DNA of 64,000 bases from Dehalococcoidia bacterium (GTDB lineage: Bacteria; Chloroflexota; Dehalococcoidia; Lucifugimonadales; Lucifugimonadaceae), in contig OZ247429.1 in NCBI GenBank assembly GCA_965232825.1, positions 1,568,585 to 1,632,584 of the forward strand. The letters are read 5' to 3'. Every line of letters starts with the position of its first letter. Position 1 is the stretch's first letter. Positions 13,061-52,100 of the stretch are shown here, piece by piece. Made by a program: the position numbers and the translations under genes. Under the pieces are notes generated by a model, which did not search any database, was not told the origin of the DNA, and was given only the letters and a program-made list of their open reading frames with translations.

Positions 13061-13088
13061 GTAGGGACAGGTTTCAAACCTGCCCGCC
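13061..13088. repeat. Palindromic intergenic element, family A copy (gtagggacaggtttcaaacctgcccgcc)
   Basis: Imperfect hairpin 4 nt after the amidase stop. Related copies lie at 16871-16899 and 38203-38231. Confidence 0.6.
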
Positions 13089-13174
13089 GGCGACAAGGAG
13101 CGATATCTCGACTGACGACCCAAACGACCAACGCCCATCATTCAAAATCATTCGCATCCTAGTTCGGCACACCC

Positions 13175-13765
13175 ATGCAAACCGAAAACGCATCCGCGCA
13201 CAACACAAAACGCACCCGACACGATCGCCACATCAACCGACCGTCGATGCGTAAAGATCGCGGCTTCGCCTGCATCGGACTCGACCGACCAACAGACCCC
13301 GTCAATGTCGGCCATGCGCTCCGCGCCGCATTTTGTTTCGACGCGAGATTGGTCATCATCGGCGGCGAAACCCCAAATATCCGACTTTCTAAACTGACCA
13401 CCGATCCCATGCGGTCCTACCGACACATCCCAGTCATCAAATCGAAAAACCTGCTCAAAGCAGTCCCTGAAGACACCACCGTTGTCGGTATCGAACTCTG
13501 TGACGACGCCTCAACTCTTGTGGAATTCAAACATCCCGAACGCGCCTGCTACATCTTCGGTCCCGAAAACGGCATCCTTTCCGACGAAATTCTCGACCGA
13601 TGCACACACAAGGTCATGATCCCTACGATGGCATCCCTAAACCTCGGAATGACCGTGAACATCGTCATGTACGACCGACTCGCAAAAGCGTGGCCAAAGC
13701 TGGTTGCGCGGCCCGCATGGGGCGAACCTTCAACTGCGGACGTGGATGTCGGGACCAACCCGTGA
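13175..13765 (+). CDS. SpoU/TrmH-family RNA 2'-O-methyltransferase-like protein
   Basis: It carries the C-terminal SPOUT knot motifs (CYIFGPENGILSDEILDRCTHKVMIPTMASLNLGMTVNIVMYD). The real start is probably the internal Met at 13247 (MRKDRGFACIGL...). Confidence 0.75.
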   Translation: MQTENASAHNTKRTRHDRHINRPSMRKDRGFACIGLDRPTDPVNVGHALRAAFCFDARLVIIGGETPNIRLSKLTTDPMRSYRHIPVIKSKNLLKAVPEDTTVVGIELCDDASTLVEFKHPERACYIFGPENGILSDEILDRCTHKVMIPTMASLNLGMTVNIVMYDRLAKAWPKLVARPAWGEPSTADVDVGTNP

Positions 13766-13774
13766 ATCTCCGCG

Positions 13775-14087
13775 AAAGCCGTCATTCCCGCGAGACTCCG
13801 TCATTCCAGCGCACGCGGGAACCCAGAGGGGCGGTGCAAAACCGCCGCCAATCCGGCGAAACTCCGTCATTCCAGCACACGCGGGAACCCAGAGGGGCGA
13901 TGCAAAACCAACGTCATTCCCGCGAAACTCCGTCATTCCAGCGCACGCGGGAACCCAGAGGGGCGGTGCAAAACCAACGTCATTCCGGCGAAACTCCGTC
14001 ATTCCGGCGCACACGGGAAGCCAGAGGGGCCGTGCACGACCACCGTCATTCCGGCGAAAGCCGGAATCCAGAGGGGCGGAGCATTCG
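13775..14087. repeat. Tandem array of 66-bp units (family B REP-like element), ~4.4 copies
   Basis: Units start at 13798, 13864, 13930 and 13996 (exact 66-bp period), with partial copies at both ends. Unit: ccgtcattccagcgcacgcgggaacccagaggggcggtgcaaaaccaacgtcattcccgcgaaact. Each unit contains the inverted repeat ttccNgcg..cgcgggaa. Confidence 0.9.
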
Positions 14088-14099
14088 CTCAAAATAGCT

Positions 14100-15425
14100 A
14101 TGCGAACAACCCGCATGAAAGGCGTCTACTACGGCTGGTATATGCTGGCCGGCGCATCCTTGATGAATGCCTTCGGTGGCACCATCGTCTGGCAAGGCTT
14201 CGCCGTCTTCTTTATCCCGGTTGCCGAAACGCTTGGGATCACTTATTGGCAGACCTCTCTCGCATTCGCACTCGCCCGCGCCGAAAACGGCGTACTCGGA
14301 CCAATCACCGGATGGGCACTCGACAGATTCGGTTACATGCCCCTCATCTTGGGCGGCACCATCATCACCGGCGTCGGCTACATTATCCTCTCGCAGGCGG
14401 AGACATATATCGCCTTCATGCTCATATATCTCTTCGTCATTTCCATCGGATCGTCAACCTCCTTCATGCAGGCCACAACCGCGGCCCTCAACACGTGGTT
14501 CATTCGATATCGCGGCCTAGTCATGTCCATCAACAGCGCCGCGTTTCGGGCTGGCGGCGCGATCATGATCCCGCTCATTTCCGTTGGCGTCATAAATCTC
14601 GGCTGGCAGACAACCTCTTGGATCATCGGTGCCGCCCTGATCGTCTTCGTCGCACCCCTAGGATTATTGTTCCGACGATCGCCCGAAAGCATGGGTCTGA
14701 AACCCGATGGCGGTGTTTCCCTATTCCACATGCGACGGCGTCTCCGCAGAAACGACAGAACGCAGAAACGGTCATCTGCAACCGAGCAGGACGACCTTTC
14801 GCAATCCTCCGGCTCAAACGCGAACCCGGAACGCAATTTCACCACCAAGCAGGCGTTGAGAACTCCGTCGTTCTGGGTGTTGGTGTTGGCAACCACATTG
14901 CGAATGTCGGTTCACGGCACCATCTTCCTCCACTTCATTCCCATCCTCGTATGGCGCGGCGAAACCCAACAAACATCCGCCAACCTCGTCGGCCTCATAT
15001 CCCTGTCCGCAGTACCAGTAATCCTATTCACCGGCTACATCAGCGACCGCGTTGGACGACCACTATTGCTCACCTTCCTCTACAGCGCCTCCGCCGTCAG
15101 CTTGCTTCTCATGACGCTCGTAGAAGGCACCTGGCCGATATTCATGGCAATGCTGCTCTTCACCGGCTCCGAAGCTGGCAGCTCCCTCAACTGGGCCATC
15201 ATCGGCGACCTCTTCGGACGCGCCCGTTACGCCACCATCCGCGGCATGATGGCACCCATCTACAACCTCGCCCTCATCATCGCCCCCGTAGCCGCCGGCT
15301 ACACCTTCGACCGCCTCGGCACCTACCAACCCGTCCTTGTCGCCGGCACCATCCTAATGTTCATCGCGGCGCTCGTGTTCCTTGTTTTGCAACCAGCAGT
15401 GAAACGGGCGCGGCGACTCGGCTGA
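14100..15425 (+). CDS. MFS transporter (OFA-like subgroup by appearance)
   Basis: Start placed at ATG 14100 (MRTTRMKGVYYGWYMLAGASLMNAFGG...). It has ~12 hydrophobic segments with a central hydrophilic loop. The upstream part of track ORF 13704.. is only a translation of the repeat array. Confidence 0.85.
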   Translation: MRTTRMKGVYYGWYMLAGASLMNAFGGTIVWQGFAVFFIPVAETLGITYWQTSLAFALARAENGVLGPITGWALDRFGYMPLILGGTIITGVGYIILSQAETYIAFMLIYLFVISIGSSTSFMQATTAALNTWFIRYRGLVMSINSAAFRAGGAIMIPLISVGVINLGWQTTSWIIGAALIVFVAPLGLLFRRSPESMGLKPDGGVSLFHMRRRLRRNDRTQKRSSATEQDDLSQSSGSNANPERNFTTKQALRTPSFWVLVLATTLRMSVHGTIFLHFIPILVWRGETQQTSANLVGLISLSAVPVILFTGYISDRVGRPLLLTFLYSASAVSLLLMTLVEGTWPIFMAMLLFTGSEAGSSLNWAIIGDLFGRARYATIRGMMAPIYNLALIIAPVAAGYTFDRLGTYQPVLVAGTILMFIAALVFLVLQPAVKRARRLG

Positions 15426-15541: not shown

Positions 15542-15664
15542 CCCGGCCGCCGAAACAATCACTTCGTCAACCCGATTAAGGGTTTTGCAAAGATCTCCGT
15601 CATCCAAGAGAGAAAATCAGCGCGATATCGCAGACGGGTTGATGCGGAGCGATCACAAAAAGAA

Positions 15665-15741
15665 TGGTCGGGGCAACAGGATTTGAACCTGTGACCTCTT
15701 GACCCCCAGTCAAGTGCGCTACCAGGCTGCGCCATGCCCCG
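15665..15741 (-). tRNA. tRNA-Pro (anticodon GGG), CCA encoded
   Basis: The reverse complement reads CGGGGCATGGCGCAGCCTGGTAGCGCACTTGACTGGGGGTCAAGAGGTCACAGGTTCAAATCCTGTTGCCCCGACCA. This folds as a cloverleaf with a 7-bp acceptor stem, anticodon stem CTTGA/TCAAG, loop CTGGGGG, and T-loop TTCAAAT. Confidence 0.93.
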
Positions 15742-15826
15742 ACGCAGTACCACAAAGTCTATAAAAACGCAGCTCCCCCAACCTATCCGTCACCCCTTCA
15801 CACACGACGTAGAGGATGTGCGCCCA

Positions 15827-15922
15827 ACCCTCCCCCTCGATGCCCAAGCGGGAACTAAAGGGGGTTAGATTCGGCGTGCCGCACAAATCCCGTCATACCC
15901 GCGCACGCGGGTATCCAGAGGG
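15827..15922. repeat. Composite repeat: family C copy 2 followed by a family B hairpin
   Basis: accctccccctcgatgcccaagcgggaactaaagggggttagattcggcgtgccg is family C. It is followed by cccgtcatacccgcgcacgcgggtatccagaggg, which is family B. Confidence 0.7.
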
Positions 15923-16168
15923 AGCAACGAACGTAGAGTCGGTTCGCTCTATTCGCTGATACACACATCCTAGAATAAGAATGGGCGAAGGTCGCCTAGC
16001 AAGCGTAATCGTGTTGCATCAGGAATAGCATTAGGCTTCAACTGAACCCTCGATGCGACATTCGCTTCGCCCTAAAGCCCTATGCTCGGTGTCGGTAAGG
16101 GCTACCACTCATTGTAACCCGCTTGGATCATCCCCATCATTCCCAATCCTTCAAATCCTAGTTCACAC

Positions 16169-16196
16169 TTGACAAACGATACATTAGTGCTAATAT
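16169..16196 (+). promoter_or_regulatory. Near-consensus sigma70-type promoter (TTGACA-N16-TGcTAATAT)
   Basis: ttgaca aacgatacattagtgc taatat gives a perfect -35, a 5/6 -10 and an extended -10 TG. It lies in an ORF-free region pointing toward 16200-17087. Confidence 0.4.
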
Positions 16197-16735
16197 AAGA
16201 ACTGTTAACAACAAACATCGCCGCGCCGACGGGTGCGGATACGACCTCAACTAGACCCTGCCGACAAAAACCCGAGACCCAGCCCAAGACCGTGAACGCA
16301 ACACCACAAGAGCTACACAGTCTAAGACTGATCTCGGCATCCTTGAGCAAACAAGATGCAACGTCGGGAGGGACCGTTAGAAGCGAACGCTGCTACAAGG
16401 TCCAGTCGCGTCGCCAATGGCAGGCGCCGCAACACGAGCCAGACAACCGTACCACGCACGTGGTACCAACGTCCAAGGGCTGGGCGAACGTTCGTGAATC
16501 CGGCAGACGTCGGCCCTCGAAAACAAACAGGGCGCGGCTACAGCACCAGCTCGGGACTAACCGAGCGATGGAGAGCGGCACAGCTCAAGCAGCCGAACTC
16601 CGGGCCCACGGCCTGGCAACGTGGGCAGACGCTGGAATTAAAGGACGGGCCCACGTCCAATCCCCGCAAGCGCGGCGATGAAAAACCATTCGGCTTGCCC
16701 CCGTTAAAAGGGACAACGTCCGAGAACCATCCGGG

Positions 16736-16757
16736 TTTCCCCCGCTAGCGGGGGAAA
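16736..16757. other. Perfect 22-nt palindrome / strong hairpin (tttcccccgc ta gcgggggaaa)
   Basis: It has 10-nt perfectly complementary arms and no flanking U-tract on either strand, so it is not a canonical intrinsic terminator. Confidence 0.5.
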
Positions 16758-16779
16758 TGTCCGAAGGACAAAGGAGGCA

Positions 16780-17040
16780 CACCACCCCCACCAACCAACC
16801 AAAACCTGCCACCCCCCGCAGGCCATACCAACACACCCTCCTCCCCTTCGCAAAGCGAAAGCGACGCGACGTAGGGGCGGGTTTCAAACCCGCCCTCGCA
16901 CGCAGGGGATGCACGAAAACCACCAATCCACCAACCCCACATCCCCTCCATCCTGTCCATCCATGTAAATTCCCCCAACCCATCATTCCAATCATCAAAA
17001 ATCATGGCAATCATAGTTCAAACCGGCCCTCGCCTAAAAT
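16780..17040 (+). promoter_or_regulatory. Extremely C-rich / G-poor tract (rut-like) upstream of hisS
   Basis: Hand counts: 16781-16860 has 42 C versus 7 G in 80 nt, and 16921-17000 has 37 C versus 2 G in 80 nt. The tract is interrupted only by the family A palindrome at 16871-16899. Confidence 0.3.
16871..16899. repeat. Palindromic intergenic element, family A copy (gtaggggcgggtttcaaacccgccctcgc)
   Basis: Same core as the copies at 13061 and 38203. Confidence 0.6.
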
Positions 17041-17087
17041 CCCGCCCATCCCGGTTCAGACAATCGAGAGCATAGAATCGATGACGA

Positions 17088-18389
17088 ATGACTTCGCAAC
17101 AAAACTACCGGGCACCACGCGGCGTCGCCGACATCCTTCCAGACGATCAAACCGTCTGGAACGCGGTCAAGAAAACCGCCATCAACTCCGCACGCCAGTT
17201 CGGATACCAGCAGATCGACACCCCAATCTTCGAAAATACCGGCCTATTCCGCCGCGGTGTAGGCGGTGAAACCGACATCGTCCAAAAAGAGATGTACTCC
17301 TTTGACGACCTCGGCGGCGAGTCTCTAACTCTGCGACCCGAAGGCACCGCGCCCGTTTGCCGCTCGTACATCGAGCACGGCATGCACAACCTCCCGCAAC
17401 CGGTCCGCCTCTTCTACATCGCTCCCATGTTCCGTTACGACCGTCCGCAAGCCGGCCGGTATCGCCAACACCACCAGTTCGGGTGCGAAGCTATCGGTGA
17501 CCCTTCGCCAACCATCGACGCCGAAATCATCGAGATCGGTCTCCACTACATCACCGCACTCGGCCTATCAGACGTCACCGTCCGAATCAACTCCATCGGT
17601 GACCCAGAAACTCGCACCAGCTACAACGACGATCTTCGTAACCACTACGCAAAATACGCCAACGACCTGCCTAAAGTTGACCGCGACCGCCTCGAAAGGG
17701 CCCCACTCCGACTCCTCGACTCCAAAGAACCCGCGACCCAAAAGCTCAGCGCCGACGCGCCGAAATCATTGGATTATCTCTCGGACGAAGCACAAAATCA
17801 CTGGGAAAACCTGTTAGTCCTGTTGGACGGTCTAAAAACCGCCTACCCCAACTTCAGCTACCGTACCGACCACACCCTCGTCCGCGGCCTGGACTACTAC
17901 AACCGAACCGTCTTCGAGTTCGAACCATCCACCGAAGGCAGCCAAACTTCGCTCTTCGGCGGCGGAAGATACGACCCGCTCATCGGCATCCTCGGCGGCA
18001 ACCCAACACCGGGCGTCGGCTTCGGCTCCGGCATCGAAAGAATCATCCTCGAAACTCAACGACAAGAATCACTCGATGTAGCCGAAGCGCCTCGCAACGC
18101 TGTAATGGTCCACGTCGGCGACAACGCCACCATACGCGCTGCCCAACTCGCCGCCGAACTGCGCAACCACGGCATATCCGTCCTCATGGCCCCCGCCGGC
18201 AAGTCAATGCGCGCACAGATGCGTTACGCAAACCGCGCCAACGCAAACTATGCCATCATCATCGGCAACCGTGAAATCGAACAAGGCGTCGCAGCCGTAA
18301 AGCCACTCCAATTCGACGGCGACCAAAATACACTCTCACTCGACTCCACAACAATCGCAAACTTCATTGCCCCTTCGAATAATGCCTGA
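17088..18389 (+). CDS. hisS: Histidine--tRNA ligase
   Basis: 433 aa with class II motifs (LRPEGTAPVCRSY, RLFYIAPMFRYDRPQAGRYRQHHQFGCE, GGGRYD) and a C-terminal anticodon-binding domain. Confidence 0.97.
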   Translation: MTSQQNYRAPRGVADILPDDQTVWNAVKKTAINSARQFGYQQIDTPIFENTGLFRRGVGGETDIVQKEMYSFDDLGGESLTLRPEGTAPVCRSYIEHGMHNLPQPVRLFYIAPMFRYDRPQAGRYRQHHQFGCEAIGDPSPTIDAEIIEIGLHYITALGLSDVTVRINSIGDPETRTSYNDDLRNHYAKYANDLPKVDRDRLERAPLRLLDSKEPATQKLSADAPKSLDYLSDEAQNHWENLLVLLDGLKTAYPNFSYRTDHTLVRGLDYYNRTVFEFEPSTEGSQTSLFGGGRYDPLIGILGGNPTPGVGFGSGIERIILETQRQESLDVAEAPRNAVMVHVGDNATIRAAQLAAELRNHGISVLMAPAGKSMRAQMRYANRANANYAIIIGNREIEQGVAAVKPLQFDGDQNTLSLDSTTIANFIAPSNNA

Positions 18390-44585: not shown

Positions 44586-47500
44586 TTAGTCGTCGTCCAC
44601 GATGGTCATGGTTCCCACGGACGTGGGCGTGAACCACTCTCCGGGGAGGAACGCCTCCACCGCGAAGTACTCGTCCGGTTCGTCCTTGCTGTCATCATAC
44701 AGCCAGACCTCTCCCGTCAGCGCGGTTACGCCCGGCTCGAACACCATCACCCCGTACATGGCCTGGTATTCGGATGAATTCGCCCGGTCGTCCAGCAGGT
44801 GGTAGGCGGTCCCGGCGTACCAGCTCACCTCGAATTCCTCAGTCAAGGCATGGGAGAGGAGTATCCGGAACTCCACAATGTCGCCCTCCGCGCCCGAGGC
44901 ATCCTCCACTGTGACGCTTAGCTCGGCCTTCTGGTCGTCATCGTCCGATACGCTAACCGTGGCTGCGCCTTGAGCCGCCGACACGGTGTAGCCGGCGTCG
45001 GAGGCCGGAGTGTCCAGCGTAGCTGTAACCGATCCGTCGGCTTCGTCCGCACCGTCGTTGGTCGTGCCCACCGTTAACGTGACGCTACCTGTGGTCGGTA
45101 TGGTCACGGTTTGCTTGCCCGTGGTAGCTCCGTAGTCGCCGCTCTGCGACACCGTCACGCTCACGTCGAGGTTGGCCGCGGGGACCGGACTGGCGGTGAT
45201 GGTAAATGTTGCGTCGCCGCCCTCGGTCACGCCGTCGCCGGCCGTGATCGAGACCTCCGGAACGTCGTCGTCCGAGACCGAGACCGTGGCCGCGCTCTGG
45301 GATGAGGACACCGTGTAGCCGGTGTCGGAGGCCGGAGTGTCCAGCGTAGCTGTAACCGATCCGTCGGCTTCTTCCGCACCGTCGTTGGTCGTGCCCACCG
45401 TTAACGTGATGCTACCTGTGGTCGGTATGGTCACGGTTTGCTTGCCCGTGGTAGCTCCGTAGTCGCCGCTCTGCGACACCGTCACGCTCACGTCGAGGTT
45501 GGCCGCGGGGACCGGACTGGCGGTGATGGTAAATGTTGCGTCGCTGCCCTCGGTCACGCCGTCGCCGGCCGTGATCGAGACCTCCGGAACGTCGTCGTCC
45601 GAGACCGAGACCGTGGCCGCGCCCTGAGATGAGGACACCGTGTAGCCGGCGTCGGAGGCCGGTGTGTCCAACGTCGCCGTTACCGACCCGTCAGCTTCGT
45701 CCGTACCGTCGTTAGTAGTGCCTACCGTCAGGGTGAAACTACCCGTCGTCGGTATGGTCACGGTTTGCTTGCCCGTGGTAGCTCCGTAGTTACCGCTCTG
45801 CGACACCGTCACGCTCACGTCCAGGTCGGCCGCCGGGGACGGGCTGGCCGTGATGGTGAACGTTGCATCTCCACCCTCGGTCACGCCGTTGCCAGCGGTG
45901 ATGCTCACCTCCGGCGTGGTCGGCGGTGCATCGTCATCGTCCGCGACGCTGACCGTGGCCGCGCCCTGGGATGAGGACACCGTGTAGCCGGCGTCGGAGG
46001 CCGGTGTGTCCAACGTCGCCGTTACCGACCCGTCAGCTTCGTCCGCACCGTCGTTGGTCGTGCCCACCGTTAACGTGATGCTACCTGTCGTCGGTATGGT
46101 CACGGTTTGCTTGCCCGTGGTAGCTCCGTAGTCGCCGCTCTGCGACACCGTCACGCTCACGTCCAGGTCGGCCGCCGGGGACGGGCTGGCCGTGATGGTG
46201 AAGGTGGCGTCGCCGCCCTCGGTGACGCCGCTGCCGGCGGTAATGCTCACCTCCGGCGTGGTCGGCGGTGCATCGTCATCGTCCGAGACGCTGACCGTGG
46301 CCGCGCCCTGGGATGAGGACACCGTGTAGCCAGCGTCGGAGGCCGGAGTGTCCAGCGTAGCTGTAACCGACCCGTCGGTCTCGTCCGCATCGTCGTTGGT
46401 GGTGCCTACCGTCAGGGTGAAACTGCCCGTCGTCGGGATCGTCACCGTTTGTTTGCCCGTGGTAGCTCCGTAGTCGCCGCTCTGCGACACCGTCACGCTC
46501 ACGTCGAGGTTGGCCGCGGGGGCCGGACTGGCGGTGATGGTGAACGTTGCGTCGCCGCCCTCGGTCACGCCGTTGCCAGCGGTGATGCTCACCTCCGGCG
46601 TGGTGGTTGGCGGCGTGACGATGACCTTGGAATCTTTCGAATCTCCATCCGCAAGGGTGGACACCTTGATGGAGTAGGTGCCGGTCACTTCGCTGCTGCG
46701 GAATGCAACTACGAAGACCTGGTACCCCGTCTCCGGCTCAAGGTCGGTGATCTGATGCTCGGTCTCTGACGTGAAAGCGTATCGCAGCCTCGGGATGCCC
46801 GAGGTCGGGTACCATCCGACCTGATATTGGGTATTGCCTCCTTGCGATGCCCAGATGATCGTGGCGGTGCTGTCCGTCACCTGTTTGACACCGATCGTCT
46901 CGACCTCTGTCGGCGGTGCATCGTCATCGTCCGCAACGCTGACCGTGGCCGCGCCCTGGGACGAGGACACCGTGTAGCCGGCGTCGGCGGCCGGAGTGTC
47001 CAACGTCGCCGTTACCGACCCGTCAGCTTCGTCCGTACCGTCGTTAGTAGTGCCTACCGTCAGGGTGAAACTACCCGTCGTCGGCATGGTCACGGTCTGC
47101 TTGCCCGTGGTAGCTCCGTAGTCGCCGCTCTGCGACACCGTCACGCTCACGTCGAGGTTGGCCGCGGGGGCCGGACTGGCGGTGATGGTGAACGTTGCGT
47201 CGCCGCCCTCGGTCACGCCGTTGCCAGCGGTGATGCTCACCTCTGGCGTGGTCGTTGGCGGCGTATCGTCATCGTCAGCGATGCTGACCGTGGCCGCGCC
47301 CTGGGATGAGGACACCGTGTAGCCGGCGTCGGCGGCCGGTGTGTCCAGCGTCGCCGTTACCGATCCGTCGGCTTCGTCCGTACCGTCGTTGATGGTGCCT
47401 ACCGTCAGGGTGGCGCTACCCGTCGTCGGGATCGTCACGGTCTGTTTGCCCGTGGCCGCGCCGTAGTCGCCGCTCTGCGACACCGTGACGCTCACGTCAA

Positions 47501-50500
47501 GGTCGGCCGCCGGGGACGGGCTGGCCGTGATGGTGAAGGTGGCGTCGCCGCCCTCGGTGACGCCGCTGCCGGCGGTAATGCTCACCTCCGGCGTGGTCGG
47601 CGGTGCATCGTCATCGTCCGCGACGCTGACCGTGGCCGCGCCCTGGGATGAGGACACCGTGTAGCCAGCGTCGGAGGCCGGAGTGTCCAGCGTAGCCGTT
47701 ACCGACCCGTCAGCTTCATCCGTACCGTCGTTGGTGGTGCCAATGGTCAGAGTGGCACTGCCCGAGGTCGGGATCGTCACCGTTTGTTTGCCCGTGGTAG
47801 CTCCGTAGTCGCCGCTCTGCGACACCGTCACGCTCACGTCGAGGTTGGCCGCGGGGGCCGGACTGGCGGTGATGGTGAAGGTGGCGTCGCCGCCCTCGGT
47901 GACGCCGCTGCCAGCCGAGATGCTGACCTCCGGTGTCTGCACTGGCGTGTCGTCGTCATCTGCGACGCTGACTGTGGCTGTGCCCTGAGACGCTGACACC
48001 GTGTAGCCAGCGTCGGCGGCCGGTGTGTCCAACGTCGCCGTTACCGACCCGTCGGTCTCGTCTGCATCGTCGTTGGTGGTGCCAATGGTCAGAGTGGCGC
48101 TGCCCGATGTGGGGATGGTCACCGTTTGTTTGCCCGTGGTCGCGCCGTAGTCGCCGCTGGCCGAGACCGTCACGCCGACGTCCAGGTTGGCCGACGGGGC
48201 TGGGCTGGCAGTGACCGTGAACGTTGCGTCGCCACCTTCTGTTACGCCGCTACCGGCCGTAACGCTCACCACCGGTTCCGACGGGCTGTCATCGTCCGTG
48301 ATCTTGACCCTGGCCACGTTCTGGGTCGGCGACAGCGTGTAGCCGCTGGCCCTGTTTATGAAGACTGTCACCATGCCATCGGCCTCGTCCTCTTCGTCGT
48401 TGGTGGTGCCCATCGTTAGGGTGGCGCTGCCAGTAGTCGGGATGGTCACCGTCCGTATGCCCGTGCCGATACCGTAGTGGCCGCTGGCGGCGACCGTCAC
48501 ACTCACGTCGAGGTTTGTCGTCGGAGCGGGGTCCGCGGTGAGCGTGAAGCTAGCGTCGCCGCCCTCGGTGATGTCGTCTCCGGCGCTGATCGAGACCACC
48601 AGAATGTCGTCGTCGGAGACGGTCACCGTCGCAGCGCTCTGAGTCGCCGACACCGTGTAGCCGGCATCGACGGCCGGAGCGTCGAGCGTCGCCGTGACCG
48701 ACCCGTTGGCTTCGTCGTCGTCATCGTTAATCGTGGACACCGTGAGCGTGACGCTGCCCGTGGTCGGGATGGTCACCGTCCGCTTACCAGTAGTTGCGGC
48801 GTAGTCGCCGTTGGACGAGACCGTCACACTCACGTCGACAGCTGCCGACGGGGCCGGGCTGGCAGTAACGGTGAAGGTCGCGTCTCCGCCCTCGGTGACG
48901 CCGTCCCCGGCGGTGACGCTTACCTTTGGCCTGTCTGGAGTCGGCGGTTCGTCGTCGTCCGCGACGCTGACCGTGGCCGCACTCTGAGACGACGATACCG
49001 TGTAGCCGCTGCCGGTGTCCAAGGTGGCGGTCACCGACCCGTCGTCCTCGGTCACGTCGTCGTTGACGGTGTCCACCTTCAGGGTGCCCTTGCCGCCAAT
49101 ATCAATGGTCACCTGCACCTGGCGAGGTGTGGCGTCAATCGTCACCGTTCTGGTGCTGCCTGCGCTCGGGATCGTCACTGTTCGTTTACCCGTGGTCGCG
49201 CCGTATTCGCCGGTGGTCGAGACCGTCACACTCACGTCGAAGTCGGTCGGCGGGGCCGGGTCTGCTGTGATGATGAAGCCGGCAGCGCCGCCCTCGGTAA
49301 TACTGCCGCGAACTGCCGTGATGCTCACCTCAGGACCCGGTTCATCGTTATCCACGACGATGACCGTGGCCGCGTCCTGGTTCTTTGGCACCTTATAGGC
49401 GGCGTCGGCGGAGGGAGTATCCAGCGTCGCCGTGACCGACCCGTTGGGCTCGTCGGCCTCGTCGTTGGTTGTGCTCACCGTCATGCCGACGCTGCCCGAG
49501 GGCGGGATCGTCACCGTCCGCTGGCCTGTGGTTGCGCCGTAATCGCCGCTGGCCGACACCGTGACGCTCACGTCCAGGTTGGTCGTCGGAGCCGGGTTGG
49601 CGGTAATCGTGAACCGAGCCCAGTTGCCCTCGGTTGCCTGGCCCGTGCCAACGATGCTGACGATCGGTTTGGGCGGGAGCACTGTGACGGCCACCGCGCG
49701 CCCAACCTTCGATCCGTCATTGGCGGCTTGCGCCTCAACGAGCACGCGGTAGACATTGTCCTCGTCGGCATCTTTCGGATCTTCGAAATCGGGCGAGGAA
49801 GCGAAGCTCAGTACGCCGGCGGCGTTGATTGAGAATATCTCGGCGTCCTGTCCAGATAGCGTCCAGGACACAGGGGTAGTCAGGTGATGCGACGTGAAGG
49901 TAGCCACCGAATCCGTCCGGCCAGTGGAGTACGAGACTGCGTCGGGACCACTCACTCGCGGTGTGGAGGGTCCGAAGACCTGAAGGATGTGGTCCTTGCC
50001 GGGCCCGTTCGATGTCGTGATGTAGAGCACGCCGTCCGGCCCCATGACCGGAGAGCGCAGGCGCCCGTAGTGTTGATAGAGTTCCGGCACCAGAGTTTCG
50101 CTGAGAAGGGTTCCGTTGCTGGCGAACTCAAAGACTTTCAAATATTGCACCTTCAGCAGCGCGACGGCCAGTCGTCCGTTCCACGCGCCCCAGCCCGCGC
50201 CCTCGAGGAACACCGCGCCGCTCGGCGCGATCGCTGGGAACCAGGACTGCCACTTGGCCTCGATCGCCTCTGGGAAGGCTTGCAGGTCCGTCATCGGAAC
50301 GTCCTCGTGGTATGGCGGCGTCGGGTCCCAGCCATAGTTGCCGCCGCTGGTGAGGAGGTTGATTTCGTCGTCGCGATCGGGACCGTGCTCCACCGTCCAT
50401 ACTTGGTTCGTTCCTGGACGGAACGCGAGTCCCTGCGGGTTCCGATGTCCATAGGTGTAGATCCGACTGTCGGACGGGGTGGTGAATGGGTTGTCGGGCG

Positions 50501-51740
50501 CGCCTGCTCCCGTCTGGGCATCAACGCGCAGCACTTTCCCGGCGAGGGAAGTGAGGTCCTGAGGCCCGCTAGCGACGTACCCGTCTCCCGTCGTAATCCA
50601 CAGGTAGCCGTCCGAGCCGAAACGGATTCGGCAACCGCCGTGCCGCAGGTGCCAAGTCAGGGGAATACCGGCGACCAACGGCTCGTCTAGGCGGAGAGCC
50701 TCGCTGTAGTCGCTCTTCATGTCCCACTTGATGACTTGCACCTCCGGCCCGGAATCTCCAGTAACGGCCATGCAGGTGTAGAAGCGCCCGAAGACCGGGC
50801 CAACACCGTCCTCGGTGCTACTGACGCTGAAGGAAGGATCGACGGCGATACCCATCATCCCGACTTCGCGACTGGTGACAATGTCGGTAACGTCCGCCTC
50901 GACCTGCTGCATCTGCCCGTCGGGACGTCGGCTGTAGATCTTGCCCGACCGCTCAGTGAACAGCATCGTGCCGTCTGGAGTGAATGCGATGTCCCAGGGA
51001 ATGCTCAGGCCGGAGACGAGTGGGCGCACGGTCAATTCAGGCAGGGCGGTCGCGGCGGTGATCTGTGTGGTAGAAGTCCACTCCGCCGACTTGTCCAAAT
51101 TCCATGCGTTACCTGTGCTGCGTCGGTCGTGGTAACGGACATTGACTCTGAGGTACTTGCCCACGTGCGTGCTGTCTGGCGTGAAAGTCGCAACCTCGGA
51201 AGCCTCTCTTGTGTAATGACCGGGAACCCCCGTTTTGACACGGGTGAAACGAGTCCCGTCGGTCGAGACGCTCCAGTACCAGATGATCCCGGTGTCTGGA
51301 CGCATCCCGCCATCGGGATCAGTGAGCCGCGCCCGGATCATGGTACCGGCGCGAAGCGTCGTTGGGGCTACGGAGAGGACTCCCGCCTCTTCGATGTCTA
51401 ACACGGAGATCGTAACCGGAATGCTGGCTGTGCCATTGTCATGATTGATATCGACATTGACCGCATAACTATTGCGTACTTCATAGTCCAGCGATACAGC
51501 GGTGCTCAGTTGACCGCTGGCGCTGTCGATGCTGAAGCTGCCAGCGTCCGTGCCTGACAGGGCATGCGTAAGATTGCCGACGAGGTCGGAATTGGTCACC
51601 GGATCGCCAACGGCCGTACCTACTGGCTGATTCTCCAGGACTTGAAGGGTCGCGCTCGACGCATGAACCGTACCAGATATGGGCAACAGCAATAGACCCA
51701 AGAGCATCAGGCCAACAAGAGCCAGCCTGCCGTCAAACAT
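44586..51740 (-). CDS. Giant exported multidomain protein: cadherin-like + PQQ-type (glucose/sorbosone) sugar dehydrogenase beta-propeller + 14 Calx-beta-like repeats with an embedded FN3 domain
   Basis: The track ORF 44586..52016 has a TTG start. I place the start at ATG 51740 (MFDGRLALVGLMLLGLLLLPISGTVHA|SS, a classic signal peptide). The cadherin-like block is LQVLENQPVGTAVG...LDYEVRNSYAVNV. The propeller blocks are GLSIPWDIAFTPDGTMLFTER, RHGGCRIRFGSDGYLWITTGD, LAGKVLRV, YTYGHRNPQGLAF and EHGPDRDDEINLLTSGGNYGWP-like. There are 13 units of PEVSITAGSGVTEGGDATFTITASP...TNDGTDEADGSVTATLD...ATVSVADDD plus a divergent terminal Calx-beta. The FN3 block is VTDSTATIIWAS...YQVFVVAF. No C-terminal anchor motif. 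Confidence 0.9.
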   Translation of the reverse strand: MFDGRLALVGLMLLGLLLLPISGTVHASSATLQVLENQPVGTAVGDPVTNSDLVGNLTHALSGTDAGSFSIDSASGQLSTAVSLDYEVRNSYAVNVDINHDNGTASIPVTISVLDIEEAGVLSVAPTTLRAGTMIRARLTDPDGGMRPDTGIIWYWSVSTDGTRFTRVKTGVPGHYTREASEVATFTPDSTHVGKYLRVNVRYHDRRSTGNAWNLDKSAEWTSTTQITAATALPELTVRPLVSGLSIPWDIAFTPDGTMLFTERSGKIYSRRPDGQMQQVEADVTDIVTSREVGMMGIAVDPSFSVSSTEDGVGPVFGRFYTCMAVTGDSGPEVQVIKWDMKSDYSEALRLDEPLVAGIPLTWHLRHGGCRIRFGSDGYLWITTGDGYVASGPQDLTSLAGKVLRVDAQTGAGAPDNPFTTPSDSRIYTYGHRNPQGLAFRPGTNQVWTVEHGPDRDDEINLLTSGGNYGWDPTPPYHEDVPMTDLQAFPEAIEAKWQSWFPAIAPSGAVFLEGAGWGAWNGRLAVALLKVQYLKVFEFASNGTLLSETLVPELYQHYGRLRSPVMGPDGVLYITTSNGPGKDHILQVFGPSTPRVSGPDAVSYSTGRTDSVATFTSHHLTTPVSWTLSGQDAEIFSINAAGVLSFASSPDFEDPKDADEDNVYRVLVEAQAANDGSKVGRAVAVTVLPPKPIVSIVGTGQATEGNWARFTITANPAPTTNLDVSVTVSASGDYGATTGQRTVTIPPSGSVGMTVSTTNDEADEPNGSVTATLDTPSADAAYKVPKNQDAATVIVVDNDEPGPEVSITAVRGSITEGGAAGFIITADPAPPTDFDVSVTVSTTGEYGATTGKRTVTIPSAGSTRTVTIDATPRQVQVTIDIGGKGTLKVDTVNDDVTEDDGSVTATLDTGSGYTVSSSQSAATVSVADDDEPPTPDRPKVSVTAGDGVTEGGDATFTVTASPAPSAAVDVSVTVSSNGDYAATTGKRTVTIPTTGSVTLTVSTINDDDDEANGSVTATLDAPAVDAGYTVSATQSAATVTVSDDDILVVSISAGDDITEGGDASFTLTADPAPTTNLDVSVTVAASGHYGIGTGIRTVTIPTTGSATLTMGTTNDEEDEADGMVTVFINRASGYTLSPTQNVARVKITDDDSPSEPVVSVTAGSGVTEGGDATFTVTASPAPSANLDVGVTVSASGDYGATTGKQTVTIPTSGSATLTIGTTNDDADETDGSVTATLDTPAADAGYTVSASQGTATVSVADDDDTPVQTPEVSISAGSGVTEGGDATFTITASPAPAANLDVSVTVSQSGDYGATTGKQTVTIPTSGSATLTIGTTNDGTDEADGSVTATLDTPASDAGYTVSSSQGAATVSVADDDDAPPTTPEVSITAGSGVTEGGDATFTITASPSPAADLDVSVTVSQSGDYGAATGKQTVTIPTTGSATLTVGTINDGTDEADGSVTATLDTPAADAGYTVSSSQGAATVSIADDDDTPPTTTPEVSITAGNGVTEGGDATFTITASPAPAANLDVSVTVSQSGDYGATTGKQTVTMPTTGSFTLTVGTTNDGTDEADGSVTATLDTPAADAGYTVSSSQGAATVSVADDDDAPPTEVETIGVKQVTDSTATIIWASQGGNTQYQVGWYPTSGIPRLRYAFTSETEHQITDLEPETGYQVFVVAFRSSEVTGTYSIKVSTLADGDSKDSKVIVTPPTTTPEVSITAGNGVTEGGDATFTITASPAPAANLDVSVTVSQSGDYGATTGKQTVTIPTTGSFTLTVGTTNDDADETDGSVTATLDTPASDAGYTVSSSQGAATVSVSDDDDAPPTTPEVSITAGSGVTEGGDATFTITASPSPAADLDVSVTVSQSGDYGATTGKQTVTIPTTGSITLTVGTTNDGADEADGSVTATLDTPASDAGYTVSSSQGAATVSVADDDDAPPTTPEVSITAGNGVTEGGDATFTITASPSPAADLDVSVTVSQSGNYGATTGKQTVTIPTTGSFTLTVGTTNDGTDEADGSVTATLDTPASDAGYTVSSSQGAATVSVSDDDVPEVSITAGDGVTEGSDATFTITASPVPAANLDVSVTVSQSGDYGATTGKQTVTIPTTGSITLTVGTTNDGAEEADGSVTATLDTPASDTGYTVSSSQSAATVSVSDDDVPEVSITAGDGVTEGGDATFTITASPVPAANLDVSVTVSQSGDYGATTGKQTVTIPTTGSVTLTVGTTNDGADEADGSVTATLDTPASDAGYTVSAAQGAATVSVSDDDDQKAELSVTVEDASGAEGDIVEFRILLSHALTEEFEVSWYAGTAYHLLDDRANSSEYQAMYGVMVFEPGVTALTGEVWLYDDSKDEPDEYFAVEAFLPGEWFTPTSVGTMTIVDDD
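44940..48282. repeat. High-identity tandem coding repeats (periods 327 and 342 bp) inside the giant gene
   Basis: Antisense track ORFs recur at 45111, 45438, 45765, 46107, 46449 ... 47784, 48126 with nearly identical sequences. Adjacent units 45001-45060 and 45328-45387 differ at 1 of 60 nt by eye. The array is interrupted by the FN3-coding segment (~46600-46915). Confidence 0.9.
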
Positions 51741-51901
51741 CCGTAGCCATGTCAGTTGTCGATTCGAGAAATCGAAACTACGACTTGCGCGATCGTTCAG
51801 GGTCATCAGCGTCCGATGCAGAGCATATGGGGCGTCATTCATTGAGAAAATTGGCATCGATATGTCACCCAATATCTTGGGATGTTCGCTGCGCAACCTT
51901 T

Positions 51902-51932
51902 CAATATATAGCAAAAATATGCACAAGATCAA
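51902..51932 (-). promoter_or_regulatory. Candidate promoter of the giant gene (TTGATC-N16-18-TATATA/TATATT) in AT-rich leader
   Basis: The minus strand reads ttgatc ttgtgcatatttttgc tatatattg. It lies ~160 nt upstream of ATG 51740. Confidence 0.3.
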
Positions 51933-52100
51933 TGAAACTCGATTACTGGGACTGTCCCCAGACTTGGCTGTACGTATCTTTTCTTCGTAGAGTCGGCTCG
52001 ATTTCCATTGGGGCAACGCGATGTACTCATCGTGTGGTCAGCATGGTGAGTACATCGATCAGTTCTGTCCTGCAAGAACCATGACCGCCTTTCCCTAGCC

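Follow-up and report, generated by a model that had tools for sequence, protein, structure and literature searches.

A candidate large structured non-coding RNA between tRNA-Pro and hisS in a sponge-symbiont Dehalococcoidia genome

Introduction

To our knowledge, large and intricately folded bacterial RNAs are rare. Each of the classes found so far (RNase P RNA, tmRNA, OLE, GOLLD, ROOL and HEARO/omega RNA) is associated with unusual biochemistry. The RNA described here shares with the orphan large non-coding RNAs ROOL, GOLLD, OLE and raiA a length of hundreds of nucleotides, a conserved multi-domain fold with invariant junctions, a promoter of its own, the lack of a known partner at discovery and a restriction to a certain lineage or environment. 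It differs from them in that none of their Rfam models recognises it, that it occurs as multiple, diverged paralogues within one genome, and that it is neither tRNA-adjacent elsewhere in its family nor found in a prophage context. Like HEARO, the omega RNA of IscB-IsrB, and other guide RNAs of mobile elements, it is a large structured RNA that a genome carries in several scattered copies, and defence or mobile genes are frequent neighbours of its variable loci. In contrast to HEARO/omega RNA, however, no IscB, IsrB, TnpB or recombinase gene adjoins the family, there was no match to the Rfam HEARO model, and the 5' leader does not look like a guide, being conserved from copy to copy instead of specific to each.

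The locus lies in a stretch of 64,000 nt from a Dehalococcoidia bacterium (hereafter the window), to which all coordinates refer. An earlier note on this DNA had singled out the 1.35-kb interval 15742-17087 as a possible RNA locus and had left open whether it held a novel structured non-coding RNA, a very long hisS-prfA-prmC leader or a decayed gene. The first of these readings is supported by a conserved promoter, a covarying multi-domain fold, reading frames that are not kept, the absence of an Rfam family and abundant RNA. We consider it likely that 16169-16838 constitutes a self-contained gene cassette, whose + strand transcript is a large structured non-coding RNA that has not been described before.

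Content of the tRNA-Pro/hisS interval

The interval is bounded on the left by tRNA-Pro(GGG) (15665-15741, - strand; ARAGORN, and 66.8 bits with the Rfam tRNA model), which lies outside the element, and on the right by hisS (17088-18389, + strand). That it contains no credible gene was confirmed: all open reading frames were at most 170 aa long and overlapped one another in several frames, none of those in 15742-17087 had a Pfam match, and a protein database search yielded no named relative for them. Comparison of the tRNA-Pro/hisS spacer with that of the two closest relatives (L001 and L002), by blastn and inspection of the sequences, showed that about 1.29 kb (15767-17053) are missing there, the counterparts of 15663-15766 and of 17054 onward being separated by only about 28 nt. 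For this insert no match was found by blastn in plasmid and phage collections. Judged from sequence comparison, 15767-17053 is a mosaic of dispersed repeats and one discrete RNA cassette, and the remainder of the 1.35-kb interval, outside of the RNA, is repeat accretion made up of REP-like units, hairpin repeats and promoter-upstream motifs.

Left of the cassette, a REP-like unit (CCGTCATACCCGCGCACGCGGGTATCCAGAGGG; 15885-15922, + strand) of repeat family D2 was recognised, with raised read depth; it belongs to the same family as the 66-nt tandem array at 13780-14109. On the other side, the hairpin repeats CTTCGCAAAGCGAAAG and GTAGGGGCGGGTTTCAAACCCGCCC occupy 16840-16941, according to repeat search. 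ARAGORN called a tRNA-Gly(CCC) at 16868-16941 (- strand), which was not detected by the Rfam tRNA model even at E<=10; as the call overlaps the GTAGGGGCGGGTTTCAAACCCGCCC hairpin repeat, it is most likely false. Two further REP-like hairpin units, defined by blastn, read depth and alignments, follow the RNA body (16684-16783, + strand) and include a perfect palindrome (16736-16757), the hairpin GTCCGAAGGAC and the sequence AAGGAGG (16771-16777). The palindrome had been taken for the end of the RNA body and the orphan AAGGAGG for a sequence following it, but both belong to one dispersed repeat (16733-16778) that was also present in L002, L003, L084 and L090 and showed about 75 times the read depth of single-copy sequence (9676 versus 129). 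Other copies of the RNA carry different GC-rich hairpins at the position of 16684-16783, and the units found here form a separate high-copy dispersed repeat, probably serving as a 3' hairpin or terminator. The 16733-16778 palindrome, the GTAGGGGCGGGTTTCAAACCCGCCC hairpin and the CCGTCATTCC...CCAGAGGG units resemble REP/BIME-type repeats in being short, GC-rich, hairpin-forming, very high-copy and intergenic. They are, however, merely packing around the RNA gene, whereas the RNA body is long, multi-domain and under structural selection.

RNA cassette and promoter

The RNA cassette as a unit (16127-16844, + strand) was delimited by blastn and boundary comparison and consists of an upstream motif, a promoter, the RNA body, hairpin repeats and a CA-rich tail. 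It was 91.7% identical over 721 nt (blastn) to L091 and L092, where it is flanked by unrelated genes. The phased upstream motif AATCC/ATCAT..TAGTTCA (16133-16164, + strand), identified as repeat family D6 and by alignments and regex search, recurs upstream of hisS (16988-17019) and of the ORF at 13175; in most homologues it is located upstream of the promoter. It is followed by a sigma-70-type promoter (16169-16196, + strand) of the form TTGACA-N16-TAATAT with an extended -10 TG, which matched 10 of 12 consensus positions in a motif scan and was the sole + strand match in 2.2 kb. Alignments showed this promoter conserved in 12 of the 13 homologues, with the hexamers kept and the spacer variable; the exception was L093, with TTGAAA..TGCTACAAT at this position. 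The strong rightward promoter proposed in the earlier note was thereby confirmed.

The promoter lies 20 nt upstream of the RNA body, and transcription is inferred to start at about 16204-16208. At this predicted start site an 8-nt palindrome was found in the alignment (TGTTAACA; 16203-16210, + strand), which is replaced at the same place by TGAATTCA or GAAC-CA-GTTC in other copies, so that the sequence differs and the symmetry is kept. A variant with TTAA>AATT was present in the reads. At its other end the cassette carries a conserved C/A-rich tail (16784-16838, + strand; alignments and regex search) with the hairpin CCTGC-N8-GCAGG (16805-16822). The tail occurs only once in the window, and 10 of 13 homologues retain it although their downstream genes differ; on its composition alone, it might be a Rho-type back-up terminator or an insulator.

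Fold of the RNA body

A three-domain fold was predicted for the RNA body (16216-16680, + strand) from inverted repeat I3, from folding, and from RNAalifold and pair counts on 13 sequences (nhmmer E=1e-153). The body of about 465 nt is closed by the 10-bp helix P1 (16216-16225 with 16671-16680), with P2 (16230-16233 with 16663-16666) inside it. This corrects the earlier picture of a ~560-nt body ending in the palindrome, as the end is formed by the closing helix. Both strands of 16197-16780 folded better than shuffled sequences, with z = -4.6 and -4.85.

Domain 1 (D1; 16241-16372, + strand) is lineage-variable and without a consensus fold in the alignments, and was found much shortened in L094. 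Domain 2 (D2; 16374-16503, + strand) is a nearly invariant core according to folds, alignments and pair counts, with the helices 16383-16389/16489-16495, 16400-16407/16478-16485 (containing interior U.G pairs) and 16408-16415/16423-16430 and the invariant strands GUUAGAA and AACACGAGCCAG. Within it lies a variable hairpin site, P8 (16442-16473, + strand), which was recognised from read joints (16444>16840), alignments and pair counts; other copies carry 20-140 nt of differing inserted hairpin repeats at this site, and the base pairs of P8 covary (helix 9, double changes in four of five pairs). Domain 3 (D3; 16509-16634, + strand), supported by folds, RNAalifold and pair counts, comprises a hairpin at 16509-16538 with U.G at 16510:16537 in 13/13 sequences, the helices 16541-16544/16631-16634 and 16569-16579/16592-16602, and the hairpins 16549-16566 and 16604-16626, the last with an A-U to G-C compensatory change. 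Of the local hairpins that had been pointed out in the earlier note, those at 16604-16626 and 16549-16566 held up, being conserved in the 13 homologues with compensatory changes, whereas the one at 16643-16658 was only partly conserved.

The consensus fold of the homologue alignment contains 82 pairs, and 96.5% of pair cells were paired. Across the 13 homologues, compensatory double changes were observed in 13 pairs versus 5.7+-1.5 in shuffled alignments (0 of 500 shuffles reached 13) and only 2-5 pairs in slid controls. The covariation signal is modest (RNAalifold covariation term -1.05) and is limited to about five independent lineages.

Expression and RNA ends

Transcription of the body was seen in sponge metatranscriptomes, the contigs of which cover 16207-16683 at a depth of 25-120 with a depth of 0 for hisS. 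The RNA contigs span 16207 or 16222 to 16683, and in runs P10/P11 there is no coverage to the left of about 16207. Transcripts of at least three types of paralogue are represented. Two size-fractionated runs (X36 and X37) cover the promoter and D1 and not D2/D3. These data are assembled contigs and not reads; depth is approximate, DNA carry-over is possible and the strand is inferred.

Adapter junctions were found on the left at 16208, 16222 and 16264 and on the right at 16362/16366, 16454 and 16674/16676. The ends 16222 and 16676 lie within P1 and would leave a 2-nt 3' overhang if the RNA is on the + strand. RNase III leaves 2-nt 3' overhangs, and from this geometry alone an RNase III-like cut inside P1 might shorten the transcript to ends at about 16222 and 16676; the two junctions come from contigs of different runs, and the junction at 16674 also exists. 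The primary transcript is inferred to continue past P1 into the GC-rich hairpin repeats. In several respects the RNA resembles pre-16S and pre-23S rRNA, where RNase III excises stable RNAs at a terminal helix: its two flanks form a long, irregular duplex of about 20 bp if P1-P2-P3 are counted together, the ends at 16222 and 16676 lie inside this helix and would leave a 2-nt 3' overhang, and a strong promoter is preceded by an upstream motif. The RNA described here differs in that it is not an rRNA (no SSU, LSU or 5S model match was obtained) and in that cleavage is inferred from few contig adapter junctions.

Coding, leader and known-family tests

The location upstream of and co-directional with hisS would be compatible with a cis-acting hisS-prfA-prmC leader (T-box-like or attenuator), and the long stop-free frames, in a sequence that is though T-poor, with a decayed or small protein gene. 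These explanations can practically be ruled out. There was no T-box (RF00230) match, the element is missing from relatives that have the same hisS promoter and an 85-87% identical HisS, homologues precede unrelated genes, and RNA coverage stops before hisS. The -10 box of hisS (TAGAAT, 17073-17078, within 17073-17090, + strand), identified by sequence comparison 9 nt upstream of the ATG at 17088, is conserved in L001-L003, all without the RNA element, which indicates that hisS is transcribed from a promoter of its own with practically no leader. With regard to coding, the ORF 'proteins' switch frame between copies, the invariant nucleotide blocks show no relation to codon position, and variant positions in the reads show no three-base periodicity (8, 5 and 6 by residue). 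Protein searches gave no Pfam match and no named homologue, the database matches of the spurious ORFs being all unnamed and domain-less. Neither the leader nor the decayed gene considered in the earlier note could thus be retained.

A diverged member of a known RNA class that is missed by covariance models (RNase P RNA, tmRNA, 6S, SRP, HEARO/omega RNA, ROOL, GOLLD or OLE) is conceivable, since size, closing helix, abundance and a strong promoter are common to RNase P RNA and tmRNA and the multi-copy dispersal resembles HEARO. Against all loci, however, Rfam 15, which also covers raiA, riboswitches and group I/II introns, returned tRNA-Pro as the only match at gathering score, and even at E<=10 the window copy, L093 and L084, which are 64-70% identical to each other, gave only unrelated weak matches, none of them common to the copies. 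No tmRNA was detected by ARAGORN in the window or in 12 loci, and no GGAAAGUCC / ACAGAA-type RNase P core on direct reading of the sequence. Furthermore, there is no IscB, IsrB, TnpB or reverse transcriptase gene beside any copy. We therefore regard membership in a known class as very improbable, in agreement with the earlier note, in which tmRNA, RNase P, SRP, 6S and T-box signatures had not been recognised by eye. In the literature we found no described sponge or Chloroflexi non-coding RNA of this kind.

Strand of the RNA

The assignment of the RNA to the + strand is well supported though not final. It is based on the direction of the promoter, which points into the body with no conserved promoter to the right of it, on interior U.G pairs (+) at 16401:16484, 16406:16479 and 16510:16537, on the A-rich unpaired positions (39% A and 13% U on +) and on the geometry of the 2-nt 3' overhang. 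Thermodynamics or counts of G.U and A.C on shared pairs were uninformative in this respect; the pairs predicted on both strands include 20 G.U(+) and 20 A.C(+). All 13 adapter junctions had read 1 in + sense, which implies strand-specific libraries. In a dUTP-type library, read 1 in + letters means - strand RNA; the library kit of the metatranscriptome runs could not be identified and the strand is thus inferred and not proven.

The same fold could accordingly be real in a functional - strand transcript that ends at the U-rich run directly after P1 (about 16208), with the + promoter driving an antisense or read-through transcript. The uniform adapter orientation would fit such a transcript if the libraries were dUTP, as would GAUGUUUGUUGUU after P1 with the RNA end at 16208 lying 8 nt past the helix, several helix-end positions that are A.C on + and alternate AC/AU, and the slightly lower energy of the - strand consensus fold. 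However, nothing promoter-like or conserved was found right of P1 in any lineage, whereas the + promoter is conserved in the manner of a promoter. On the - strand, three positions inside helices would be A.C mismatches in most sequences, U would make up 39% and A 13% of the unpaired regions, unlike known large RNAs, and ends at 16222/16676 would leave the overhang on the 5' side. We consider a functional - strand RNA rather unlikely, without being able to dismiss it, and interpret the family below as + strand RNA.

Copies and distribution of the family

Thirteen homologues (64-95% identical) were found in other uncultured genomes, via protein matches of the spurious ORFs (single-frame query) and a core-motif scan. 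Each locus carries one copy, and the gene neighbourhoods are all unrelated. One circular genome of 2.99 Mb contains at least two diverged copies, L084 and L095, which lie 1.06 Mb apart, and in DNA runs the RNA body showed about five times the single-copy depth. Among 80 hisS loci (L001, L002 and 78 others; nhmmer) there was no copy upstream of hisS. No tRNA was found near any other copy, and tRNA adjacency was rejected as a family trait, since the window copy alone adjoins a tRNA. Exact 22-25-mers of the window copy were absent from viral and JGI metagenome contigs, and the invariant-core pattern had no match in viral contigs. The cassette belongs to an undescribed multi-copy family in sponge-symbiont Dehalococcoidia.

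The occurrence of several copies at unrelated loci, the insertion here relative to close relatives, the embedding among other dispersed repeats and the orientation of 8 out of 11 copies toward the next gene might also indicate that this is chiefly a non-autonomous mobile DNA element, MITE-like or a promoter-carrying repeat that drives or insulates the downstream gene, with a functionless RNA and conservation merely from recent spread. We consider this quite unlikely. The family has diverged to 64-70% identity and yet keeps the promoter, the helices (by compensatory changes) and the A-rich junction strands, which argues for selection on the RNA fold and not for recent copying. No terminal inverted repeats or target duplications were found at the cassette ends (window, L092, L081 and L082, with few boundaries comparable), no transposase was found with the cassette, and according to Pfam content the neighbours of 12 copies include no reverse transcriptase, IscB, TnpB or recombinase common to the loci. 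RNA coverage moreover stops at or near P1 without reaching hisS, and the genes behind the cassette, such as hisS, retain promoters of their own. The cassette is inferred to spread by duplication or recombination among the flanking dispersed repeats.

Possible function and significance

The product is inferred to be a stable trans-acting RNA, for which no partner protein or target was identified. Most probably it would serve as RNA scaffold or core within a ribonucleoprotein, or else resemble a ribozyme; its function would reside in D2/D3 and the invariant unpaired A-rich strands, whereas D1 and the P8 hairpin would be peripheral and dispensable. Only tentatively can we go further and suggest that sponge-symbiont Dehalococcoidia, and they alone, possess a new class of large functional RNA, a ribozyme or the RNA core of an unknown ribonucleoprotein. 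It would exist as several diverged paralogues, each with a promoter of its own, which change loci as a cassette of 0.7 kb and are possibly regulated or self-associating through the start-site palindrome.

With about 460 nt, a strong promoter, abundance in natural metatranscriptomes, a fold conserved across paralogues of only about 65-70% identity and an origin in uncultivated sponge symbionts, organisms with a practically unexplored RNA biology, this candidate is worth pursuing. For the annotation of metagenome-assembled genomes it is relevant that gene callers currently place spurious ORFs over this RNA, and that an intergenic region of "empty" appearance turned out to consist of dispersed repeats stacked around a real gene.

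A structured RNA gene inserted between tRNA-Pro and hisS

Between tRNA-Pro(GGG) (15665-15741, - strand) and hisS (17088-18389, + strand) we found a cassette encoding a large, structured RNA of a new family, both stable and abundant. Open reading frames of the interval were at most 170 aa long, Arg/Pro-rich and mutually overlapping in several frames, and a Pfam search of them returned no match, in line with the earlier note, which had seen no credible coding sequence here. Stop-free frames occur on both strands because region 16200-16900 is strongly skewed towards A over T. Elsewhere in the window, one ORF of 2476 aa was observed at 44586-52016 (- strand). A promoter scan recovered the single + strand site that had been noticed by eye, TTGACA-16-TAATAT with an upstream TG (16169-16196). 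Stretch 16197-16780 folded better than dinucleotide shuffles on both strands (z = -4.6 and -4.85), the fold being closed where two distant inverted-repeat arms, 16216-16233 and 16663-16680, pair.

HisS of the window showed 83-87% identity to that of three MAGs and places the window among uncultured sponge-associated Dehalococcoidia. In the two closest relatives (L001 and L002) the tRNA-Pro flank directly adjoins the hisS promoter region and 15767-17053 is missing; the spacer of the third (L003) measures 230 nt and contains only a palindrome repeat in opposite orientation. Judged from these sequence comparisons, the interval is an insertion, with repeats surrounding one discrete unit. On contigs from sponge-sample metagenomes, depth was single-copy on the flanks (~21 and ~129), about 5x that of the flanks over 16213-16683 and ~75x single-copy over the palindrome repeat at 16733-16778; these contigs fragment into short unitigs, for which many different flanks exist.

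The repeat at 16733-16778 is present in very high copy number and combines AAGGAGG with a GTCCGAAGGAC hairpin and a palindrome whose 10-bp arms match perfectly. It is scattered between genes across the clade, facing either way (L002 1719-1761, L003 3816-3861 on the - strand, and L082, L084, L090 and L091). The palindrome and the orphan AAGGAGG, the former previously taken for the end of the RNA body, both belong to a dispersed element. Further dispersed repeats were a GTAGGGGCGGGTTTCAAACCCGCCC hairpin, a CCGTCAT...CCAGAGGG unit (15885-15922) and an AATCC...TAGTTCA motif (16133-16164). The last is one of three phased AATCC/ATCAT...TAGTTCA(A/C)AC motifs (also 13134-13165 and 16988-17019), which immediately precede several promoters (among them those of hisS, the RNA gene and the 13175 ORF) and are found upstream of most RNA copies. 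The motif could be an UP-like element specific to this clade, or an array to which a regulator binds. ARAGORN called a tRNA-Gly(CCC) at 16868-16941 (- strand), which we treated as false, as it was undetected by the Rfam tRNA model even at E<=10 and rests on a T-arm-like hairpin repeat, GGGCGGGTTTGAAACCCGCCC, that is also seen at 13061 and 38203 and whose family may derive from a tRNA. A tandem array of REP-like units with a 66-nt period (CCGTCATTCCAGCGCACGCGGGAACCCAGAGGG; 13780-14109) lies just upstream of, or overlaps, a long ORF for a transporter-like membrane protein (13704-15425), and inflates the called ORFs.

The earlier note had also considered a very long hisS-prfA-prmC leader. We rejected this reading because hisS has its own -10 box, TAGAAT (within 17073-17090; L001 3985-4003), which is conserved in all three relatives (L001, L002 and L003), although these lack the RNA. 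The box lies 9 nt before the ATG without a Shine-Dalgarno sequence, so that the hisS mRNA is apparently leaderless.

Homologous copies

Homologues were recovered by translating the stop-free + frame and searching a protein collection, which returned unnamed ORF calls without domains; the contigs behind these calls carry homologous DNA. A profile of the retrieved ORFs gave further homologues, and a scan for the invariant core motif two additional loci. No homologue was found in plasmid, phage and viral collections, and exact 22-25-mers from the window had no match in JGI metagenomes. The 13 distinct copies are 64-95% identical to each other, each with a different gene neighbourhood and only one per locus; none occurred in 80 hisS loci. 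Two copies of ~70% identity (L084 and L095) lie 1.06 Mb apart on the same circular 2.99-Mb genome, and the copies under ORF entries P0009 and P0015 share one 3.10-Mb genome. Cassette limits were set at 16127-16844 because L091 and L092 have 721 nt in common with the window over this stretch (91.7% identity) and share no flank with it.

Restriction-modification, toxin-antitoxin or other defence genes were frequent near the copies but are common in such genomes anyway, and may simply reflect their density in sponge symbionts. Flanks of L082, L083, L084, L088, L090 and L095 often carried restriction-modification, HicB antitoxin, AAA_15/21, DUF2326/MC6 or NurA/DUF87 genes. No reverse transcriptase, IscB, IsrB, TnpB or recombinase recurred beside the copies, and the few cassette ends compared showed neither inverted repeats nor target duplications. 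That the cassette moves by recombining through the dispersed repeats around it is only a guess.

Conserved features and covariation

The promoter was kept as CTTGACw-N17-TGCTAATAT with a variable spacer in 12 of 13 copies, the most divergent one having TTGAAA-N17-TGCTACAAT. At the predicted start site (16203-16210, with the aligned position in L081, L089 and L091-L093), nine copies carry the 8-nt palindrome TGTTAACA; 3-4 copies have TGAATTCA instead, and L093 has GAAC-CA-GTTC. Symmetry is retained while the sequence changes; a dimeric regulator might use the site as its operator, or the RNA might self-pair there. Every copy has the closing helix P1 (16216-16225/16671-16680). Of the domains, D1 (16241-16372) varies; almost no change is seen in D2 (16374-16503) and D3 (16509-16634), which contain long invariant single-stranded stretches including GUUAGAA, AACACGAGCCAG and GAAUCCGGCAGACGUC. 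Hairpin repeats inserted at P8 (16442-16473) differ from copy to copy. A GC-rich hairpin, from a different repeat family each time, always stands 3' of the body, followed in 10 of 13 copies by a conserved C/A-rich tail (16784-16838 in the window) with the hairpin CCTGC-N8-9-GCAGG.

Since 1-nt indels shift the frame of the ORF 'proteins' between copies and conservation is independent of codon position, the element is not protein-coding. A decayed gene, previously kept as a possibility, is rejected on these grounds together with the absence of Pfam matches.

RNAalifold predicted 82 pairs in 16 helices from 13 sequences, with standard pairs in 96.5% of cells. Both sides had changed at 13 pairs, compared with 5.7+-1.5 after column shuffling (none of 500 shuffles reached 13) and 2-5 in slid controls with partners moved 1-3 columns; the covariation score was 0.111 versus 0.069 and 0.02-0.05, respectively. 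Only ~5 independent lineages underlie these statistics, yet the outcome was consistent from helix to helix. Clear compensatory pairs were 16608:16622 (A-U to G-C), 16550:16565, 16551:16564, 16404:16481 and the base of P8; the first three support two hairpins that the earlier note had picked out by eye (16604-16625 and 16549-16565). As compensatory change preserves the fold across paralogues only 64-70% identical, a mobile repeat at the DNA level alone is a poor fit.

Transcription, RNA ends and strand

The RNA body was present in public sponge metatranscriptomes, with several paralogue types expressed. In small libraries (~35 Mb), contigs spanned 16207/16222 to 16683 at a depth of 25-120, with hisS at depth 0 and nothing left of ~16207; some extended past 16683 into the next hairpin repeat. 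Left ends fused to adapters lay at 16208, 16222 and 16264, right ends at 16362/16366, 16454, 16674 and 16676. Ends 16222/16676 fall within P1 and leave a 2-nt 3' overhang, as RNase III would; this inference rests on a handful of junctions, all from assembled contigs. Two size-fractionated runs (X36 and X37) covered the promoter region and D1 (16210-16370) at high depth and D2/D3 not at all, with adapter junctions at 16362 and 16366, and may reflect a separate ~140-nt 5' fragment released by cleavage.

We place the RNA on the + strand with good, though not full, confidence. The promoter is conserved on this strand, and right of P1 no conserved or promoter-like sequence was seen; U.G occurs at three helix-interior positions in most or all sequences; and the overhang geometry is compatible with the + strand only. 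Among unpaired positions, A makes up 39% and U 13%, a composition typical for large natural RNAs. Pointing to a - strand RNA instead are a U-rich run that comes after P1 on that strand, ending at 16208, and A.C at several helix-end positions of the + strand. At each of the 13 adapter junctions read 1 is in + sense, which would also mean a - strand RNA if the libraries were dUTP-based (kit unknown), and on the pairs predicted for both strands the counts of G.U and A.C (+ strand) are equal.

Relation to known RNAs and possible function

At E<=10 no Rfam model matched the copy in the window or either of two distant ones, none matched the RNA at gathering score in any locus, and ARAGORN found no tmRNA, as the comparison by eye had suggested; literature searches yielded no description of such an RNA. 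Together with the conserved promoter, the fold maintained by compensatory change and the metatranscriptome coverage, this upholds the earlier proposal of a novel structured ncRNA. Its function is unknown. The invariant core with A-rich junctions, dispensable periphery, strong promoter, end-processing at the terminal helix and several diverged paralogues form a pattern that best fits an RNA acting in trans, either as an RNP scaffold or in a ribozyme-like way. The family is new but of a known kind, the large bacterial structured ncRNAs of unknown function; a catalytic, assembling or guide activity, if true, would make it a new RNA class.
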